Virus record (IMG/VR): IMGVR_UViG_3300020392_000004
Strand: one strand, 5' to 3'
DNA: 64,000 bases
From: a virus
The position numbers were made by a program, and so were the translations under genes. How positions within the stretch are numbered: the first letter of the stretch is position 1; each line of letters opens with the position of its first letter. This document shows positions 7,929 through 61,697 of this stretch, one piece after another. Under the pieces are notes generated by a model that was given only the letters and a program-made list of their open reading frames with translations, was not told the DNA's origin and searched no databases.

Positions 7929-8618
7929 TTACTTTGTTAAATTGAATGTTTCGTCTAAATCAAACAAGTTCCAATCTTCATCTATTTGACCTACTTGGTG
8001 ATTTCTCTGATTACCTATGTGATTAGTATTAACATTAAATGAAATAGAGTATCTATCTTTATCAGTTCTATTAGGTTCAACCATATGCATCATGGCACTT
8101 GGAAACATAATTAAACTTCCTGTGACAGGTTTTACTGCATAACTTTCTATACACCTTGCATTTGGTGGGTAATCTGATACAACCTTTGGGTCTGTATTGA
8201 TAGCTAAAAATTGACCTTCGTCTCCTTCTGAATGTATATAAAAAGCTCCACTATACCAACAACCATTGTGTAAGTGAGGTCTATTCCATGCAAGGTGGTC
8301 GTTTATATTTGCCCATGAATTACCTATATCTATCTGAACTTTTCCTCTATCGATACCATGGAATCCTGCTATCTCATTATTTAATATGTCTTTTAAAACT
8401 CTCATCAACTTAATAAATGTAGGGTGATTTTCACAACCGTCATTTGATTGCCAACCAGTATAGGCATTTGATATCTGTCTTCCAACTGGGTCTTTTTTTC
8501 TCATACCATCTATTGCGTCCTTCAACATTCCACAATATTCACTTGTAATCCTACCACTCTCTACAAGGTTTTCCTCATAACAAATAGTTGGAAATAGTAA
8601 TCTAATCCCTTTCTTCAT
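7929..8618 (-). CDS. Putative 2OG-Fe(II) oxygenase (TIGR02466-like)
   Basis: SWANIN...PHLHNGCWYSGAFY...GSLIMFPSAMMHMVEPN...RYSISFN. Confidence 0.85.
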   Translation of the reverse strand: MKKGIRLLFPTICYEENLVESGRITSEYCGMLKDAIDGMRKKDPVGRQISNAYTGWQSNDGCENHPTFIKLMRVLKDILNNEIAGFHGIDRGKVQIDIGNSWANINDHLAWNRPHLHNGCWYSGAFYIHSEGDEGQFLAINTDPKVVSDYPPNARCIESYAVKPVTGSLIMFPSAMMHMVEPNRTDKDRYSISFNVNTNHIGNQRNHQVGQIDEDWNLFDLDETFNLTK

Positions 8619-9546
8619 GTCCGTCCCAGTTTAAGTCTGTCAAACTTCTTTGTTTCTCTTTGAAATCCATTTCTAATTGAACTTCTTCTTTCTTATGCAT
8701 AGGGCATTCGGGTGGAGGATTTTCACCTTCTGCATATAGATTAGCTTTATTAGTTTTAAATCCACCTTTTCTATAACCACCGATATTCAGTCTATCGTCA
8801 ACTGATTTATAAGCACCAGTTTCCATATCTATTAATCCTTGTTTCACTTGCCATTTTTGCATTGATTGTTCTGATATTCCATGGGTATTAAACCAGTCTT
8901 TAGATTCTCCATAAAAATAAGTTGATTTCCATTCGTCTCTTTTATAGGGAACTATTTGTAGTATAGGTGTTCCTTTCGGTATAATAAAAGAATGTTTTAC
9001 TTTAGGATAGAATATAATTTGTGCATTATCCATACCTAAATTAAAAGTATCTGTATCAATTATACCTTGCCATACTGCAAAATATTTATTTTGAAATAAG
9101 AATGGGTCTATGAAAAAAACTGAATAGCCTGGAGGTGTAGTTATGTTCCAAAAGTTTCCCATTTTAAATGCATCTTTTACAGGCCCTTCGTCACCCATAT
9201 ATTCAAATGAATCTTGGAACTGTGCAGCTGGGTGAGTTGGTGACGCTTGCATATTATCACTTCCGTCTAAATGAAATGGGCTAGTGGTCATTCTTTCACT
9301 TTCTTCTGGCCAATCCCAATCAAATCCATTCATAACAGGAATGTCACATGCAGTAATAATATACCAACCAGTTTTTAAATAATCGTCCATGGCTGGACAA
9401 GACCTAACAGTTTGAGCTCCCTCTCCTCTATGGTCAATTCTAATCTTTGCAGTTTTCCACCATTCAGGCATGTATGTTTTTGCAACAACAGGCTTGAATC
9501 TCTGAAAAGCTTCGGGATTATATGTTCTAAATTCAATTGTTGGCAT
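8602..9546 (-). CDS. DUF6065-like hypothetical protein
   Basis: PEWWK, TVRSCPAM.D...GW, W.ITTPPGYS.FF..P, GIIDTD, IPKGTPILQIVP motifs; sits between two oxygenases. Confidence 0.7.
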   Translation of the reverse strand: MPTIEFRTYNPEAFQRFKPVVAKTYMPEWWKTAKIRIDHRGEGAQTVRSCPAMDDYLKTGWYIITACDIPVMNGFDWDWPEESERMTTSPFHLDGSDNMQASPTHPAAQFQDSFEYMGDEGPVKDAFKMGNFWNITTPPGYSVFFIDPFLFQNKYFAVWQGIIDTDTFNLGMDNAQIIFYPKVKHSFIIPKGTPILQIVPYKRDEWKSTYFYGESKDWFNTHGISEQSMQKWQVKQGLIDMETGAYKSVDDRLNIGGYRKGGFKTNKANLYAEGENPPPECPMHKKEEVQLEMDFKEKQRSLTDLNWDGHEERD

Positions 9547-10270
9547 ATCTTTGGTGTTCGTCTAGTAAACGAACTTCGTCTCCTCTTAAAACAATAGACT
9601 TCCTATCTATATATCTTGCGTCTTTAGAGGGTGATTCTGCACCGTGTGGTATTCTTCCGTCAAACATTAAGAGACGATTCGGTTTGAATCCAACTCTTCC
9701 TATTTCATATCTATCCATGAGTTTTCTTGCACCCGTAGGGACATATCTGTCATAAAATCTTAAATCACCACCCCAGTTTTCATTCCAAAAAGTATTAGTG
9801 TAATATAAAAATGATAAATTATAATCGTCTTCCATACTACAATCAGAATGACAACTTCCGTCTAAACCGTGTGTTTGTGAGTTTGTTCCCATGTATTGAA
9901 ATCTTACCCACTCAAAAGCAAAATCAGTTCTAATCTTTCTATCAAACCAATACATTAAATGTGGAGTTCCATATTTGTGTGATTCACATTCTAATTTTAA
10001 GTATCTTCCGTCACCTGCTTCTCTTCCTCTGAAATATGAAGCTCCCCATAATTGGTGATTCGGTAAACCACCTCTACCACCGTCACCTTGAACTTCGTTA
10101 TGTTTTTGCCATGAGGTTCTTTGACTTAAAAAAAGGTCTACTGCTTGATGAAGTGAGGAATCTAGATAATTGTCTATAACATATACCTTATTACCAAGAG
10201 GCAACTCGGTTATATAAAAGGGAGAATCAATATCGATTCTTTCTATAGAGTTATAGGTTTTGCTCGGCAT
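9533..10270 (-). CDS. 2OG-Fe(II) oxygenase, prolyl-4-hydroxylase-like
   Basis: HSD iron-binding motif, LYY.N..W..NWGG.L.F, KPNRLLMFDGRIPH, distal Arg (DRKSIV). Confidence 0.85.
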   Translation of the reverse strand: MPSKTYNSIERIDIDSPFYITELPLGNKVYVIDNYLDSSLHQAVDLFLSQRTSWQKHNEVQGDGGRGGLPNHQLWGASYFRGREAGDGRYLKLECESHKYGTPHLMYWFDRKIRTDFAFEWVRFQYMGTNSQTHGLDGSCHSDCSMEDDYNLSFLYYTNTFWNENWGGDLRFYDRYVPTGARKLMDRYEIGRVGFKPNRLLMFDGRIPHGAESPSKDARYIDRKSIVLRGDEVRLLDEHQRYANN

Positions 10271-10826
10271 TATATCCTCCGTCCTTCAAAGTTGAAGGTG
10301 TAGGTAAAGCCATTAGATAATCTTCGATAGGTTTTAGTGTATCTTCTCTAGTGACAGATATTTCTCTAAATAAACCGTCAAGAACATTGTTAACTGCATC
10401 TGCATATTCAAGAACCCTTCTTGCGTCTGACCTGTAAGGGTGAGCAGAACCTTCTCTTCCAGCATATACTGATTCAAAAAAATCATCAAAACCATGCTTT
10501 TGTGCATGTATATGTATATTTTCTCTTGCAGTTCTATTGATTTCACCAATATATTGATTGTTCAAATTTACACCGTGAGGTGGTTCGGAATTTGCAATAT
10601 ATTGTTCAATACTATCTCTTTCTGTTTCAGATAAAGGTAATGTTTCTTGTTGTTCTAGGGGTTTATCATCTTCCCATTTCAATACTTTGACTTCTATTTG
10701 GTCATATATTAAAACTTCAAAATCAAAACCTAAATCAGGTTTATCGACATTGTCAAATCTATATTCTAGTCCATTTGGTTTTCTAATTGTTAGATTCCCA
10801 AATTCACAATAAGTTAATGCATTCAT
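10251..10826 (-). CDS. Hypothetical protein resembling tail-fibre assembly/chaperone proteins
   Basis: C-terminal pattern AQKHGFDDFFESVYA...PYRSDARRVLEYADAV...YLMALP recalls phage fibre-assembly proteins (recognised by eye only). Confidence 0.5.
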   Translation of the reverse strand: MNALTYCEFGNLTIRKPNGLEYRFDNVDKPDLGFDFEVLIYDQIEVKVLKWEDDKPLEQQETLPLSETERDSIEQYIANSEPPHGVNLNNQYIGEINRTARENIHIHAQKHGFDDFFESVYAGREGSAHPYRSDARRVLEYADAVNNVLDGLFREISVTREDTLKPIEDYLMALPTPSTLKDGGYNAEQNL

Positions 10827-10847
10827 AATAATCTCCAGTATATCACA

Positions 10848-12509
10848 CTAGTCTTTGTTTGGTAAGGTGCTTTTTACCTTATAGTATTGCTCCAACATAT
10901 TTATGTCTGAACAATCCATGTCTTTTATCCACGGCCCACCTCTTGTATAATGGACTGCATGGTGTGAATCAAGACACTCTGTTTCAAATCCCTCTGTTGC
11001 AATTTTCCCATGAGGTATTTTACTAATTTTATCTGTCCACTCAAACTGGTGTAAGTATTTACCAGTTGCAGTATTGACAACTTCGGGTGTTAACTTTTTA
11101 CAATCTTCATGTCCGTTATTAAATATCATCATACTAGACCATAATTTTTTAGGATATGATACATTTCTTTCTCCACCCATTTTAACTTCGTCATGGTGTT
11201 CAAAATCATACTGAACACATGCCACCGCATTGTCGGGGTCAAGGAAATAGAAAAATGGTAAAGGTGTTCTTTTCCATATGTAATCATTATCTATGAAGAT
11301 ACTAAATCCTTCATAGTTTTCAAGATATGGAATTAAAAATCTACTGTAAGTAAATTCAGTAGATTGATTTGCATAGTCTCTATTATAATCTTTTAATTTG
11401 CTAATGTCAAGTAATTTAACTTCTATTTTGTAATCATTGAAGTAATCTTCTCCGACTCCTCTACTTTTTGACTTTTCTATGCTATCATGTATTGACTTTT
11501 CACAAACTTCATGTATAATATTATCGTGAGAAGAATCATAACCAATGTATATGTTTAGAGGCTTCTTTTTACATAACAATGAAACCTTTTTATTGAAATC
11601 ATAAACATATTTTCTAAAATCTGTTCCCCCTCCCTGTTGTAAAGGAACACTAAATTCTATTTTTCTTTGGTCTGTATAAATTGCACTTACATTTTTAGAA
11701 TTTTCAGGGACTAGAGATAACCAATATGTTTTTAAATCTTCATATGATAAACTAGGGTGTCTTGGAAAACAATTTGCATAATCTGTGACTAGACAAGTAT
11801 TATCAGGATAATCCATAGATTGAAAAGACCTACTTCTCATTGAGCCTGGGTGTATAGATAAAGAATTTATACCGCCATGATTTCCTGTGTGTTGAGTTAG
11901 TCCTTGGATAGGTTGCCAGAGACCATTATTTTGTATGTCATTTATTAACCAGTGTGCTTTTGCAGCGTGATAAAACACAGATTGTATAGTATTTTCATGT
12001 TCTAATACCATTGATTCGTCCATGGAACCACCCATTAAATCAATATAATCTTGATTACCTTCTTGATAACCATACATTTTTGCAAATCTTTTTCTTTCTT
12101 CGTCTGTAATTTTTAAGGGTGTCGTTATGGTTTTATATTCTCCTTCCACTGTCATAAAATCCATGGAACCACCTTTTATTCCATGTCGAGGTCTACATTT
12201 TTCTGTCCAACCTTCATGTAAGAATTTTAAATATTGATAAGAATTATGGTCTAGTCCACCCCATGACATAATTTCTTTATTGTCCATTAAAGGTTTTATA
12301 TCTTTCCATGTGACTAATCTGATAGGAGGCATACATTCTTCTATGATATATTTCCAAACCTCTTCGGTTTCGTCTGTATCTCTTCTATGCTCTGGTATAG
12401 GGACTTGACCTAATTTCATTTGCCTAGTAGGCATATCTTCATAAGAAGTATAAGGTTTAAAAAACTGTTTTGCTTTTTCTAGGGTGTTGATTTCTTCAAA
12501 AGTATCCAT
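10848..12509 (-). CDS. Two-domain protein: N-terminal ParB/Srx-like domain fused to a GT-A glycosyltransferase
   Basis: C-half IYIGYDS...STEFTYSRFLIPYL...FIDND...YPKKLWSSMMIFN...HYTRGGPW; N-half WLINDIQNNGLWQPIQ...HPGSMR. Confidence 0.8.
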   Translation of the reverse strand: MDTFEEINTLEKAKQFFKPYTSYEDMPTRQMKLGQVPIPEHRRDTDETEEVWKYIIEECMPPIRLVTWKDIKPLMDNKEIMSWGGLDHNSYQYLKFLHEGWTEKCRPRHGIKGGSMDFMTVEGEYKTITTPLKITDEERKRFAKMYGYQEGNQDYIDLMGGSMDESMVLEHENTIQSVFYHAAKAHWLINDIQNNGLWQPIQGLTQHTGNHGGINSLSIHPGSMRSRSFQSMDYPDNTCLVTDYANCFPRHPSLSYEDLKTYWLSLVPENSKNVSAIYTDQRKIEFSVPLQQGGGTDFRKYVYDFNKKVSLLCKKKPLNIYIGYDSSHDNIIHEVCEKSIHDSIEKSKSRGVGEDYFNDYKIEVKLLDISKLKDYNRDYANQSTEFTYSRFLIPYLENYEGFSIFIDNDYIWKRTPLPFFYFLDPDNAVACVQYDFEHHDEVKMGGERNVSYPKKLWSSMMIFNNGHEDCKKLTPEVVNTATGKYLHQFEWTDKISKIPHGKIATEGFETECLDSHHAVHYTRGGPWIKDMDCSDINMLEQYYKVKSTLPNKD

Positions 12510-12536: not shown

Positions 12537-13433
12537 TTAACTAGAAATCGGAGTTCCAGGCCACTGTTGTTGTAATACACCGTCCCATCTTGGAACTGGT
12601 GTTCTTCCTTGTCTTGCGTAAGTGGTTGGATTCTGATTTGAATATGTAGTCGGTGTTTGACCCTGTCTAGCATAAGTCGAAGGACTTCTATGATTGTAAG
12701 TAAATGGTGTCTGACCTTGTCTTGCATAAGTTGTTGGGTTCTGATTTGCATAGGTAAAAGGAGTTCGTCCTGTTGCCTGATATGTTGAAGGTGACCTAAA
12801 GTTATATGTAAACGGTGTTTGACCTTGTCTCTCGTATGTTGACGGAGATTGATAATCATAAGTAGACGGTGTTTGACCCTGTCTTTCATAAGTTGAAGGA
12901 GACTGATAATCATATGTGAAAGGTGTTTGACCTGTTCTTTGATATGTTGAAGGTGACCTATAATCGTAAGTAGAAGGTTGCCTTGCGTCTCTTATGTTTG
13001 GTTCTTGTGCTGACCTAATGTTTGGTTCTTGTGCTGACCTAATGTTTGGTTCTTGAGCATTAGCAGGGTATGTAAATGGTTGTTGTCCTGACCTAATATT
13101 AGGCTCCTGTGCTGACACTGGGTTTCTGTAAGTGAAAGGTGACCTATGATGATATGTAAAAGGTTGTCTTGCTGGTGCTTGATATGTAAAGGGTGACCTA
13201 TAATGATATGTAAAAGGTTGTCTTGCTGGTGCCTGATAGGTGAATGGTGACCTATAATGATATGTAAATGGACTTCTAGCAGGTGCTTGATATGTAAACG
13301 GTGACCTATAGTTATAAGTGAATGGTTGTCTTGCACTTGCAATATATGGGTTTTGAGTTCCGTATGGGCTCTGATAACTTGCACCGACTGGTTGTCTTGC
13401 TTGAAATGTAAATGGACTCTGATAAAATGGCAT
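12537..13433 (-). CDS. Pro-anchored Q/P/Y/T/S/R repeat protein (zipper strand B)
   Basis: 31 units of 6-12 aa (e.g. PFTYHYRS, PSTYERQGQT, PNIRSAQE) over residues 7-278; start 2 nt after the upstream stop. Confidence 0.88.
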   Translation of the reverse strand: MPFYQSPFTFQARQPVGASYQSPYGTQNPYIASARQPFTYNYRSPFTYQAPARSPFTYHYRSPFTYQAPARQPFTYHYRSPFTYQAPARQPFTYHHRSPFTYRNPVSAQEPNIRSGQQPFTYPANAQEPNIRSAQEPNIRSAQEPNIRDARQPSTYDYRSPSTYQRTGQTPFTYDYQSPSTYERQGQTPSTYDYQSPSTYERQGQTPFTYNFRSPSTYQATGRTPFTYANQNPTTYARQGQTPFTYNHRSPSTYARQGQTPTTYSNQNPTTYARQGRTPVPRWDGVLQQQWPGTPISS

Positions 13434-14785
13434 AATTATCTCTTCTGCATGTTATGGACTACAAAGTCATTTGCAAAGAAGTTAGCATTATCACTTACAC
13501 GAGTCAAGTGATAGACCTCATGTTCTCCTTCCAGTTTGTTAATATTTGATATTTTTGCAGTTGATTGATTGTTTAAAATCAATGATAATGAATCTACAAG
13601 AATATCCCCCTCTTCAATTAGGCCAGAGATTTCTCCACCCCAAGCTGCACCCATGGCAACTTCTTTTTCCCAATCTTCCATGTTTATGACACACCAACCT
13701 TTATCTTGAATCAACATTGGGTGTCCACCAGTCACACCAGTAATCTTACCGTTGACTTCTATATCATATAATTCACATACTCTAGGTTGCATAATTTCTT
13801 CGACCACTCCAACTTCTAGTGTATCTCCTAGTGTCATGACTGACATACCAATCTCTATAGACTCGATAGGTCTGTATGTATTGTCTCCCATCCATATCAT
13901 AGTTCCCATTGCGAAACAACCGTGTCCAGTAGGTAAGCCTGGTGAACCACCGCCTGGGTAGTAAACTGGTTGTCTTGCTTGACCGATATATGGACTCTGA
14001 TATGAGAACGGAACTGGTTGTCTTGCACTGCCCGGCTGTCGTGCATGATAGGTAAATGGGTTTTGAGCAGACCTAATGTTTGGTTGCTGAATATTCGCAG
14101 GATATGTAATTGGTTGTTGAGCAGACCTAATGTTTGGTTGCTGAATATTCGCAGGATATGTAAATGGATTCTGTCCATTCCTGATATTCGGTTGTTGAAT
14201 ATTTGCTGGATATGTAAATGGATTCTGTCCATTCCTGATATTAGGCTCCTGTGCTGACACTGGGTTTCTGTATGTAAACGGTGACCTATAGTTATATGTA
14301 AATGGACTCCTTGCTGATGCTTGATAAGTGAACGGAGACCTGTAGTTATATGTAAACGGTGACCTATGATTGTATGTAAAAGGTGACCTATGGTCGTATG
14401 TGAACGGATTCTGTCTGTTCCTTATATTCGGTTCCTGTGCATTTGCAATGTAAGGATATGGCTGTTGTGCATTTCTGATATTAGGTTCCTGTGCATTTGC
14501 CTGATAAGGATAAGGAGTTTGTTTATTCCTTATGTTTGGTTCTTGAGCATTTGCAATGTAAGGATATGGTTGTTGTGCGTCCCTAATGTTTGGTTCCTGT
14601 GCATTTGCAATATACGGATAAGGTTGTTGTGCATTTGCAATATAAGGTGACCCACCGTTTGCAATATAAGGATAAGGTTGTTGTGCGTCTCTTATATTTG
14701 GTTCTTGAGCATTTGCAATGTATGGATATGGATTCTGTGCATTTGCAATGTATGGAGAACCACCCTGTGCAATATATGGGTAAGG
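12600..14785 (-). repeat. Coding tandem repeats (24/30/54-bp periodicity) in the two repeat genes
   Basis: Degenerate 54-bp units; a 35-bp identical segment is shared by the two genes at 13096-13130 and 14238-14272. Confidence 0.9.
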
Positions 14786-14947
14786 TTGTTGTGTTGCCTC
14801 TTGACCTGAAGCATTATTCCACCCGCCTGGAGCTTTGATATAAATTTGGTCAACTGCTTTCCAAGTAGACGGGCCTGTCTTGACCCATGCACCTTGAGTT
14901 GCATTCCAACCTGATGGGGTTTTAACTTTCTGTGAACCTGACGCCAT
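13436..14947 (-). CDS. Pro-anchored repeat protein (zipper strand A) with N-terminal Trp-rich adaptor and C-terminal Hint domain
   Basis: N-term KVKTPSGW/WVKTGPSTW/IYIKAPGGW; 31 repeat units over residues 55-326; Hint domain G|CFAMGTMIWMGD...VTGGHP...VYHL...NFFANDFVVHN. Confidence 0.9.
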   Translation of the reverse strand: MASGSQKVKTPSGWNATQGAWVKTGPSTWKAVDQIYIKAPGGWNNASGQEATQQPYPYIAQGGSPYIANAQNPYPYIANAQEPNIRDAQQPYPYIANGGSPYIANAQQPYPYIANAQEPNIRDAQQPYPYIANAQEPNIRNKQTPYPYQANAQEPNIRNAQQPYPYIANAQEPNIRNRQNPFTYDHRSPFTYNHRSPFTYNYRSPFTYQASARSPFTYNYRSPFTYRNPVSAQEPNIRNGQNPFTYPANIQQPNIRNGQNPFTYPANIQQPNIRSAQQPITYPANIQQPNIRSAQNPFTYHARQPGSARQPVPFSYQSPYIGQARQPVYYPGGGSPGLPTGHGCFAMGTMIWMGDNTYRPIESIEIGMSVMTLGDTLEVGVVEEIMQPRVCELYDIEVNGKITGVTGGHPMLIQDKGWCVINMEDWEKEVAMGAAWGGEISGLIEEGDILVDSLSLILNNQSTAKISNINKLEGEHEVYHLTRVSDNANFFANDFVVHNMQKR

Positions 14948-20823: not shown

Positions 20824-22419
20824 TTATCCCTCGCCAGAGATATATGGTGTTTGTCCACCGTCACCTTCACTTCCTTTTTGGAATTGTGCGTTTGGAACTG
20901 CTTGGTGTATCTTTTCTATACCTTGAGGTGCATGGACATATACCTCTTGTGCTTTTGCAACTACACCTTGGTTATTTACAAAGACACCTTTTACTTTTGC
21001 AACAGCTCCAACTGGTCTAGTTGTAGTGTATGGTTGTCTAGCAATATACGGAGAACTGTAAATATACGGTTGTGGTTGTTGGTGTATATAAGGAAATGGT
21101 TGTCTTCCTGTTGCACTACTCGTGACTTGTTGAGTTCTCTGAACAGAATATTGAGAAGGTGATTGATAATCATATGTAAAAGGACTTCTTGCATCTGCAA
21201 TATAAGGATATGGATTTTGTTTATCTCTTATATTAGGTTGTTGTATAGAAGCAGGATTATTATAAATCGAAGGTGATTGATAATCATATGTAAATGGTGT
21301 TTGACCTGTTCTTTGATATTCAGAAGGTGACTGATAATCATATGTGCTTGGTTGTTGGTATTGATATATTACTGGTTGTCTTGCATCCTTAATAGTTGGT
21401 TGTTGTCCCTGTCTTGCCTCTGCATATGGTGAGTTATATTCATATGTGCTTGGTGACCTATTTGGTTGTCGAGAAATATAAGGTTGTTGTGTTTCGAATG
21501 TTGGTGTTCTCCCCTGTCGAGAATATGTAAATGGTGACTGTGTCTGTGCTTGTGCTTGGCCTGGGATTTGGTAAGCGTGGTCTTCCCCTGAAAAGGGGTT
21601 AAAATAAAATGTTGTATTTTGAGCCTGTGTAATATATGGAACAGGTTGACCACCATTTGCAATATACGGATACGGATTTTGTGTCGATATTGCTTGAAAG
21701 GAACTTGGAGACCGTTTACTAGCATTTGGGATAGATGTTTGATATTGATATATGGCAAAGCCTGGAGAATCATCATCAAAGAAACGCCCTGGCGCCTGTG
21801 GAAACGGAGAAGATTGATAAGTTCCGAGATTCGGTTGTTGGTGTTGGTATATAACAGGATTTTGAACATTATGTGGTTGTGATACTCCCGCCTGTGCAAT
21901 TGGTCTCTGTGCATTAAAAGAAGATTGAACACTTGTTTGTTTGTTTCTAATTACTGGTTGTGTAAATTGTCCAATATAAGGAAATGGTGATTGATAATCA
22001 TATGTAAAAGGACTCTGTTTACTTACATCTTGTTTAGTAGTTTGTTTATTTCTTATATTCGGCTCTTGTGCGCTTGCAATATATGGATATGGTTGTTGTG
22101 CGCTTCTTATAAAAGGGTTCTGTCCTTGAGTTGAATTCTGATATGTAAACGGAGACTGATAATCATATGTGCTTGGTTGTTGACCCTGTCTTGCATATGT
22201 AAAAGGTTGTTGTGCGTCCTTAATAGTTGGTTGTTGATTCTGTGCTTGGTGGACATAGAAAGCAGGACTTTGGTAAATGAAAGGATATGGTTGTTGTCCT
22301 TGTCTATTTACTGAAACCTGTGTTATTCTTTGTGTTGTTTCAAAAGCTTGATATGCAACTTGACCCTGATAGGGTTGTTGGATTTGTGTCCCTTGATTTA
22401 TGTATATTTCATCAGCCAT
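20824..22419 (-). CDS. Pro-anchored repeat protein, internally mirror-symmetric
   Basis: Same unit vocabulary (PFTYDYQS, PNIRDKQN, PYPYIASAQE); C-terminal adaptor KGVFVNNQG/EVYVHAPQG. Confidence 0.88.
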   Translation of the reverse strand: MADEIYINQGTQIQQPYQGQVAYQAFETTQRITQVSVNRQGQQPYPFIYQSPAFYVHQAQNQQPTIKDAQQPFTYARQGQQPSTYDYQSPFTYQNSTQGQNPFIRSAQQPYPYIASAQEPNIRNKQTTKQDVSKQSPFTYDYQSPFPYIGQFTQPVIRNKQTSVQSSFNAQRPIAQAGVSQPHNVQNPVIYQHQQPNLGTYQSSPFPQAPGRFFDDDSPGFAIYQYQTSIPNASKRSPSSFQAISTQNPYPYIANGGQPVPYITQAQNTTFYFNPFSGEDHAYQIPGQAQAQTQSPFTYSRQGRTPTFETQQPYISRQPNRSPSTYEYNSPYAEARQGQQPTIKDARQPVIYQYQQPSTYDYQSPSEYQRTGQTPFTYDYQSPSIYNNPASIQQPNIRDKQNPYPYIADARSPFTYDYQSPSQYSVQRTQQVTSSATGRQPFPYIHQQPQPYIYSSPYIARQPYTTTRPVGAVAKVKGVFVNNQGVVAKAQEVYVHAPQGIEKIHQAVPNAQFQKGSEGDGGQTPYISGEG

Positions 22420-60533: not shown

Positions 60534-60541
60534 TATTTATA
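60534..60541 (-). promoter_or_regulatory. Late promoter TATAAATA, 5 nt before the ATG at 60528
   Basis: Exact motif overlapping the pyrD stop. Confidence 0.75.
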
Positions 60542-61697
60542 GTAATGGATTGCGTGAACCTACAGCTTCTCCTATAGAATTGAACCCGTCTTTCTTGAGT
60601 AGTTTGACTAGACCTCTGTTAATCTCATTGATATTTTGTGGGCCGTCAAATATCATTGTGGTAATCATGTGAAGTAAACTTGCACCTGATGTAATCTTTT
60701 CGTAAGCGTCTTTTGCACTAAAGATTCCGCCCACTCCAATGATAGTCACTTTACCTTTAGTTCGTCTGTATACATGTCGAATAACATCTGTAGATATTCT
60801 TGATAGAGGTTGCCCACTCATTGCACCCTTACCAGCTGGAAGTCTACCGTCTACTGTAGGATATTCTTCGGGTCTATGTTCAGTATTGAATTGTGGTTTT
60901 GCAAGGTTAGTGCAAACAAATCCGTCTATACCATGTTCCATACTTGTATCTACAATAGTATTGATTTCGTCTATCGTCATGTCGGCTGCAAGTTTTATAT
61001 AAATTGGTTTATCACTGATAGGTCTAATCTCTTCATTGACTGCACAAAGTAATTCACATAGATTGTCTTTGTCTACAAACGGTTCACCCTCTTGAGTATT
61101 AGGACAACTGATATTGATATCGTAATAGTCTCCTACATCTTTGAATGCTTTCATTGTCTTGAGGTAATCACTGATAGAATCTTCTAATATAAACTCGGGT
61201 GTTAAGTTAGAGTTGGCTGCATTGATACCGACCTTAAGTCTTCCAAAGTCAAAGTCTTTTAGTCGTGAAGATATCTTTTCTGCACCTTCGTTATTCAGAC
61301 CATACCATACAACAATAGCTTTAGACTTAATCATTCTGAATAATCTCTTGCCTGGGTTGCCTGGGCAAACTTCTCCAGTGAACGAACCAAGTTCTGCAAG
61401 ACCAAATCCCATTGAAGGATATATCTTTCCTAACTCTCCGTCCTTATCGAATCCTGCTGATAAACCTACGGGGTTCCTATACTGGATACCGTCAACCTCT
61501 ATGTTTAGACTCTTATGATTGTAGTCCATGAGTAAACTTGTTAATCCTCTAGTGATAGGATTACTGCCCAAGAATACACCTACTCTCTTCAAAGAGTAAT
61601 GAGCTTGTTCGGGTTCCATAAGGAATATAAGAGGTCTCATTAAACGATACCCCGCCCACATGATTTTATTTCTTATACCAATAATTGTGCTGTGCAT
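60537..61697 (-). CDS. pyrD: Dihydroorotate dehydrogenase (class 2-like)
   Basis: PEQAH, NPVGLSAGFDK, GN...RLFR, G.NN.G, INISCPNT, PIYIKLA.D, TN, G.MSG.PL, IIGVGGI.S..DAYEKI..GASL. Confidence 0.92.
   Translation of the reverse strand: MHSTIIGIRNKIMWAGYRLMRPLIFLMEPEQAHYSLKRVGVFLGSNPITRGLTSLLMDYNHKSLNIEVDGIQYRNPVGLSAGFDKDGELGKIYPSMGFGLAELGSFTGEVCPGNPGKRLFRMIKSKAIVVWYGLNNEGAEKISSRLKDFDFGRLKVGINAANSNLTPEFILEDSISDYLKTMKAFKDVGDYYDINISCPNTQEGEPFVDKDNLCELLCAVNEEIRPISDKPIYIKLAADMTIDEINTIVDTSMEHGIDGFVCTNLAKPQFNTEHRPEEYPTVDGRLPAGKGAMSGQPLSRISTDVIRHVYRRTKGKVTIIGVGGIFSAKDAYEKITSGASLLHMITTMIFDGPQNINEINRGLVKLLKKDGFNSIGEAVGSRNPLL

Follow-up and report, generated by a model that had tools for sequence, protein, structure and literature searches.

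In an uncultured marine myophage of the T4-like type, we have found that the fibre-like protein A carries, four residues short of its C-terminus, what its modelled fold identifies as a genuine Hint domain of the HINT superfamily (residues 344-499), and that by both fold and sequence profile this domain is closest to the bacterial intein-like (BIL) domains. Most probably the domain is optional and removes itself, acting as a passenger or as a maturation module, and is neither the structural tip of the fibre nor a ligase that joins protein A to the product of the neighbouring gene B. The window analysed here, a single stretch of 64,000 nucleotides (64 kb), is a structural module of the phage, with terminase, gp13/14/15-like, gp8, gp6 and gp5 genes, and it contains this one Hint only. 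Judged by TerL, the closest phage among deposited sequences is Phage C48C1 (Kyanoviridae; 55% identity). The gene order, a 685-aa fibre protein followed by A and then by B, recurs on TARA and other marine contigs.

Protein A (503 aa) is encoded on the minus strand at 13436..14947, as are all its parts. The head (residues 1-52, MASGSQKVKTP…GWNNASGQE; 14792..14947) is the best-conserved part of the family, with many invariant columns in the alignments. It is followed by a Lys-poor shaft (residues 53-330; 13958..14791) of 8-10-residue Pro/Gln/Tyr/Arg repeats, in which the units PYPYIAN, EPNIR, RSPFTY and PFTYPAN can be read and whose DNA repeat families have a period of 54 nt. The Gly/Pro-rich stretch PGGGSPGLPTGHG (residues 331-343; 13919..13957) then forms the end of the N-extein, with Gly343 at position -1. 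The type-A BIL-like Hint domain (156 aa, 17.3 kDa; 13451..13918) opens with Cys344 (codon TGT, 13916..13918), its Cys1 and the expected nucleophile of an N-S acyl shift at Gly343-Cys344. The block B TxxH motif is Thr406-Gly-Gly-His409 (TGGH; 13721..13732), and block G ends in His498-Asn499 (13451..13456), where the Asn would cyclise and so cut the C-terminal junction. A C-extein of four residues, Met500-Gln-Lys-Arg503 (MQKR; 13439..13450), homologous to the ends of Hint-free proteins (HQQK and similar), precedes the TAA stop codon (13436..13438). The original prediction had described a Hint domain running from Cys344 (13918) through TGGH to a His-Asn followed by MQKR, and all of this is present in the sequence.

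On its own, protein A gives sub-threshold Pfam matches (Intein_splicing, 2.7e-5; Vint, 2.4e-3), and neither NCBIfam nor PHROGs holds a family for A or B. A phmmer search of 1.84 billion representatives returned 828 relatives, many of them above the Pfam Hint thresholds (P0006, for example, matches Hint at 1.6e-47). The AlphaFold2 model of the domain, built on an alignment of 35 relatives, has a pLDDT of 89.8 and a pTM of 0.84; the linker PGGGSPGLPTGHG has low pLDDT, and disorder is confined to linker and tail. In Foldseek the best match is BIL2 from the Tetrahymena BUBL locus (6tmm/6y75; E 5e-10, TM 0.75-0.85), followed by the type-A BIL of Clostridium thermocellum (2lwy; E 7e-8) and then by mini-inteins, with Hedgehog far weaker. 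There are 56 PDB matches at E<=1e-3 and, among the matches listed, all are BIL, intein or Hedgehog Hint domains. A profile of the 35 relatives gives the same order: 1e-22 for 6tmm, 2.7e-20 for 2lwy, with inteins at 1e-13 or weaker and Hedgehog at about 1e-5.

The catalytic residues are kept in nearly all related domains (Cys1 in 180/181, the Thr in 169/181 and the block B His in 180/181), as is the C-terminal pair (penultimate His in 175/181, terminal Asn in 179/181). The block B His and the Pro after it are invariant in the alignment of relatives, and G343, C344, F345, H409, P410, H498 and N499 are invariant within the fibre family. The loss of the catalytic Cys and His from most homologues, one of two outcomes named beforehand as refuting the proposed roles of the Hint, is not seen. 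Canonical class-1 splicing had not been expected of this domain, and we agree: a class-1 intein has Cys, Ser or Thr at +1, whereas protein A has Met500, and the 181 related domains mostly have Lys or Arg there (Ser in 9, Cys in 6). Canonical inteins also sit in a conserved motif of a housekeeping enzyme, whereas the host of this Hint is a fibre protein and the site is its Gly-rich C-terminal tail. A further mark of canonical inteins, element-free alleles equal to the joined exteins, is found here (L082, L087, L091, L092 and L069, compared with protein A of the window, P0004, P0155, P0008 and P0167). The Hint of protein A is contiguous and carries no homing endonuclease, and its host is a fibre protein of variable repeat number.

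With the type-A BIL domains (Amitai 2003; Dassa 2004), such as 2lwy, the domain in protein A shares the Hint fold, Cys1, TxxH, His-Asn, the lack of Cys, Ser or Thr at +1, the lack of an endonuclease domain, and residence in a variable, non-housekeeping protein. It differs in its place close to the C-terminus of a phage fibre protein, which it precedes by four residues, with a Gly run before it and a Lys tail after it, and in that its family has Hint-free alleles matching the spliced product. A C-terminal His-Asn is what distinguishes type A from type B (PMC4031507), and on sequence and modelled structure the Hint of protein A has every feature by which type-A BILs are recognised (PMC4031507, PMC7664689). 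BIL2, from the BUBL1 polyubiquitin-like locus of Tetrahymena thermophila, is the best structural and profile match and likewise has Gly before Cys1 and a downstream Lys. It is set between two ubiquitin-like domains and passes one of them to lysines of other proteins (PMC8616854). In protein A, by contrast, a fibre shaft lies on the N-terminal side of the domain and MQKR alone on the C-terminal side.

Other systems are less close. The phage mini-inteins (gp41-1, DnaB) share the fold, blocks A, B and G, and element-free alleles equal to the joined flanks, but protein A has Met at +1, a C-extein of four residues, and a site in a low-complexity C-terminal tail rather than in a catalytic motif. Hedgehog/Hog proteins (1at0) also use a C-terminal Hint to free their N-terminal part via a thioester; in protein A, however, no sterol- or adduct-recognition region follows the Hint (four residues only remain), the His-Asn is kept, and the match is poor (TM 0.54, profile E 4.5e-5). 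A pre-toxin Hint (PT-HINT) does not fit either, as there is no toxin domain, MQKR only, and PT-HINT is not among the Pfam matches. The peptidase S74 chaperones of tailspikes and fibres are a functional analogy only, being self-cleaving C-terminal modules on phage fibres; their fold is unrelated and they use a Ser-Lys dyad instead of the Cys thioester of a Hint. Protein A has no Pfam or PHROG match to peptidase S74, and its C-terminal fold is that of a Hint.

In a quick tree the fibre Hints fall in one 63-row clade (SH-aLRT 92), in which Hints of a few unrelated phage proteins (the P0065 type and the gpI-like P0101) are nested. The tree support is too weak for a claim of repeated transfer. The P0065 group (L011:6001-6996) has an N-terminal non-repeat domain of about 170 aa, followed by a stretch of six or seven Gly that leads into a Hint from that clade; a phage with a protein of this group also encodes NAMPT and NMNAT-Nudix. 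P0101 (L013:6001-7302) carries a C-terminal Hint of the same family in a lambda-like siphophage, at the position of the tail-tip assembly protein gpI, with a gpK-like gene (JAB/NlpC) on one side and an 1830-aa gpJ-like gene on the other. P0006, P0007, P0010, P0014 and others carry up to seven tandem Hints joined head to tail (…VHN-K-(G)-CF…).

A search with residues 1-60 found 58 proteins that share the head of protein A at 74-100% identity; they span 276-881 aa, a length filter that biases the sample by leaving out the shortest Hint-free alleles. A Hint is present in 51-52 of the 58, arranged as a Gly run, Cys-Phe… Hint …His-Asn, and a tail of 4-15 residues that usually contains Lys. The six that lack it have in its place a globular, Ser/Thr/Gly-rich C-terminal domain of 150-230 residues; such tip-bearing homologues include P0177, P0179, P0187, P0197 and forms from IMG/VR. 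An IMG/VR scan with a homologue gave 79 loci and 35 distinct head-bearing ORFs, six with a Hint, about 17 with tip domains, and ten that are short (251-333 aa) and have neither. The family thus appears to follow the usual fibre layout of head, shaft and variable end, and in many members the shaft runs from head to tip without folding back. The same tip domains also occur behind MASGSQKVKTP heads and behind MSDDIFIK or MSDEIY heads (P0177/P0291, P0187/P0251), which points to shuffling of head and tip modules within a marine phage fibre family of >300 relatives.

The Hint-free alleles come from independent metagenomes (L082/L083, L087, L091, L092/L093, L069/L070). Their ends read …PGGGSPG-HQQK, …SGGGPG-HQQK, …SGPGLPQ-HQQK, …YFYGGGGGGGG-FFPQQLK and …FGGGGG-FQSNPF…DQR, and those of Hint-bearing alleles …PGGGSPGLPTGHG[Hint]MQKR (in the window), …PGGGRGGG[Hint]RQQK, …PGPSG[Hint]GQKK, …FGFGGGG[Hint]FNDKR and …SPGGGGG[Hint]FQSFQPGF…KL. 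In a joint alignment the Hint is one clean block with the Gly run on one side and the last few residues on the other. The data show this block-insertion polymorphism, and they likewise show the fold, how well the motifs are conserved, and that the element is independent of B. As the Hint-free alleles keep both the Gly run and the short tail, these are the native end of the fibre. The Gly/Pro linker of the original prediction does exist (residues 331-343), but it belongs to the host protein and not to the Hint module. The Hint-free ends have the sequence that splicing of Hint-bearing alleles would be expected to give.

The similarity extends over whole proteins. Residues 1-337 of protein A match residues 1-305 of the 309-aa L087 protein end to end at 61% identity, and residues 1-270 of P0008 match residues 1-314 (of 323) of L092 at 70%. 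P0008 resembles the Hint-free L092 more than it resembles several Hint-bearing alleles, so that presence and absence are interspersed. Identities between Hint-free and Hint-bearing alleles are 57-70%, short of near-identity, at which level insertion and precise loss look the same. Since the Hint-free alleles have the same ends and are still accompanied by a B-like gene, the Hint is an optional block insertion, and it appears to be needed neither for fibre assembly nor for the pairing of A and B. Against a purely passive passenger, it is hard to see how a non-mobile, endonuclease-less Hint would last in 51-52 of 58 homologues with zero benefit, although the length filter biases that sample.

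The tail itself carries a signal. Lys is found in the tail of 106 of 114 terminal Hints and makes up 17-18% of tail residues compared with 4.7% overall, an enrichment of about four-fold, and His-Asn is retained even where just 1-15 residues follow. This retention, the likeness of the tails to the Hint-free ends and the Lys enrichment together argue that the tail is part of the mature product; they suggest that it is under selection and still present there.

These observations lead us to favour self-removal of the Hint by type-A-BIL chemistry, either by splicing onto its own four-residue tail or by plain cleavage, as the probable course of events. Self-removal was among the roles originally put forward, and a catalytically intact domain together with Hint-free alleles makes it the best reading of the domain. 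After translation, Cys344, with Thr406 and His409, would carry out the N-S acyl shift at Gly343-Cys344; Asn499 would then cyclise with the assistance of His498, and the 17.3-kDa Hint would be released. The thioester could be resolved by the freed tail of the same protein, attacking through the alpha-amine of Met500 or through the epsilon-amine of Lys502 to give …G-MQKR, or by water, in which case the fibre would end at Gly343; in either case the mature fibre would correspond to the Hint-free alleles of related phages. We infer from the sequences both that processing occurs and which nucleophiles may resolve the thioester. Two precedents exist for the route that retains the tail. Type-A BILs are able to splice if the thioester is attacked by the amino group set free on the C-fragment (PMC4031507; PMC7664689), that is, by aminolysis (PMC4031507), and BIL2 forms an isopeptide bond to a lysine, so that a tail Lys might capture the thioester in a BIL2-like manner (PMC8616854). 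However, type-A BILs have no +1 nucleophile and mostly cleave in vitro (PMC4031507; PMC7664689), which makes restoration of the tail uncertain.

A different role for a Hint that is likewise cleaved in the end, as a removable intramolecular chaperone or timer that nucleates or registers the shaft or blocks premature assembly, seems to us unlikely. A nucleus at the C-terminus is a common starting point for the folding of repetitive phage fibres, the Hint takes the C-terminal place held by a globular tip in P0177, P0179, P0187, P0197 and the IMG/VR forms, and it is kept in most database homologues, all of which would suit such a role. The short Hint-free alleles nevertheless have the same shaft without tip or Hint, so the shaft can apparently be made alone; protein A has no S74 or other chaperone signature; and we know of no Hint domain that oligomerises. 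The folding or registration chaperone of the original prediction is thus weakened as an obligatory function, and it is a facultative one that we retain among the alternatives to self-removal of a passenger.

The relation between A and B bears on the remaining alternatives. Gene B (298 aa; 12537..13433, minus strand) is a separate cistron, 2 nt downstream of A and in another frame, and the end of its product is conserved (RWDG…WPxTPxSS). Residues 129-330 of A align co-linearly with residues 7-210 of B at 50% identity (E 3e-49), and the block RSPFTY… RNPVSAQEPNIR… PFTYPAN is nearly identical in the A shaft and in B. The start of B resembles the last shaft unit of A over 38 nt at 87% identity (13387-13424 and 13965-14002); the middles of the two genes also match over 196 nt at 78% identity (13023-13218 and 14165-14360). 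A and B thus appear to be tandem, co-linear, recombination-prone paralogues, and this undercuts the earlier placement of the Hint at the tip of a hairpin split between them. When one of two co-linear X-m-Y arrays is reversed, X faces Y by construction (here PxIR and PxTY units), so the 'complementary pairing code' lends an antiparallel hairpin no independent support. A complex prediction for A(1-343) with B scored 0.00 and weighs neither way, the partner's own fold being uncertain.

B-like genes lie about 20 nt downstream of Hint-free alleles and also downstream of the tip-bearing, Hint-less P0177, so an A-B pair exists, and presumably works, independently of the Hint. We have for the same reason discarded an association between B and the Hint. 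The N-terminus of B differs among orthologues (MPFYQ, MPTYQ, MATGFY). A fused A-B gene lacking the Hint, the form that had been suggested as worth looking for, is absent from the 58 head-bearing homologues (276-881 aa) and from the 35 IMG/VR head ORFs. We have also set aside P0009, in which a Hint is fused in frame to B-like repeats, as an artefact of a long-read contig full of frameshifts.

These data weigh on the idea that the Gly343 thioester is caught by an amine outside protein A, so that the end of the fibre is cross-linked or 'armed'; the acceptors proposed are the N-terminus of B, a Lys or N-terminus of another virion protein, an amine of the host surface, or a small molecule. The closest structural and profile match, BIL2, does conjugate its N-flank to lysines without ATP (PMC8616854), the -1 residue of protein A is an invariant Gly that follows a run of Gly, much like the C-terminus of ubiquitin, and A and B are adjacent and probably co-expressed. 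By analogy, the Hint could be a natural device that conjugates the C-terminal Gly of a fibre to an amine in trans, free of ATP and of added enzymes, and a Hint-free allele would on that view be a variant that dispenses with the covalent bond; we consider this improbable. Hint-free and tip-bearing Hint-less homologues retain the B-like gene, so that the fibre evidently works unligated, and neither an A-B fusion nor a conserved B N-terminus is found. Ligation of A to B, as first proposed, accordingly finds no support here, and trans-ligation in general is a doubtful reading.

The lysine content of the shafts does not alter this picture. The shaft of protein A has 1 Lys and 19 Arg, and B has 0 Lys and 27 Arg, which might be read as avoidance of Lys in favour of the B N-terminus as acceptor. 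We have rejected this reading because Lys is scarce in every shaft of the family, whether a Hint is present or absent: the pooled shafts of 19 homologues have 7 Lys and 414 Arg, with 0.28 Lys per 100 aa in Hint-bearing and 0.46 in Hint-less proteins and about 10.6-10.9 Arg. The repeat shafts (12537-14947 and homologues) are nearly Lys-free and Arg-rich despite the 36% GC genome. In the Hint-less paralogue at 20824-22419, the full length contains 13 Lys and 22 Arg. The C-terminal end of this paralogue (KVKGVFVN…KAQEVYVHAPQG, 20824-20990) resembles the head of protein A (KVKTP…KAVDQIYIKAPGG, 14792-14947), which suggests that the same small motif domain lies at opposite ends of the two proteins.

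It is very improbable that an unprocessed Hint serves as a permanent distal domain, whether as the end of the fibre or as a binding module. It does lie where other homologues bear tips, but every residue needed for the two cleavage reactions is near-invariant in Hints that share just 30-56% identity, and a purely structural domain would need no catalytic residues. A true intein inside a single A-B protein has next to no chance of being correct, in spite of the 2-nt spacing of the genes and the 87% match between the final repeat of A and the opening repeat of B, because frameshifting or read-through across the gap is ruled out by gaps of 2, 14 and 13 nt with frame offsets of 2, 2 and 1 at orthologous loci and by a B frame that is closed 1-6 codons upstream of its ATG, because B in L001 has its own Shine-Dalgarno, and because the sole apparent fusion is P0009.

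Hints are known from inteins of replication enzymes, from Hedgehog processing domains and from the poorly understood BILs of bacterial surface and toxin proteins; what protein A adds is a large BIL-like family that caps phage fibre and tail-tip proteins. We found no paper on Hint or intein-like domains at the ends of phage tail fibres. Deposited phage genomes gave no match to the whole of protein A (tblastn) or to 9-20 kb (megablast), and no cultured phage with protein A was found; the Hint alone matched nothing but true inteins in helicases of Vibrio phages (26-27% identity). In UniProt, proteins of uncultured phages bear the automatic label 'Hint domain containing protein'. What appears to be new is the set of Hint-free, 'empty-site' alleles of the fibre protein, together with the rejection of A-B ligation. 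The result is a natural polymorphism, with and without the element, in which the Hint-free allele is the predicted spliced product. It offers a handle on natural splicing without a +1 nucleophile, and it bears on the benefit or cost of a non-mobile intein-like element to a virus and on the covalent use of a glycine thioester. Such compact Hints, tolerant of Gly at -1 and nearly free of C-extein, could also become self-cleaving tags.

Two further features of the window may be mentioned. Downstream of B, at 7929-12509, lie genes for a 553-aa protein (phrog_28018), a 191-aa protein, a 2OG-Fe(II) oxygenase (P4H-like), a 314-aa protein and a second 2OG-Fe(II) oxygenase. This block is syntenic and is found in all related contigs, which suggests modification of the Pro-rich fibres. 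Finally, a phage dihydroorotate dehydrogenase (Pfam DHO_dh, E 4.8e-58) is encoded at 60537-61697.
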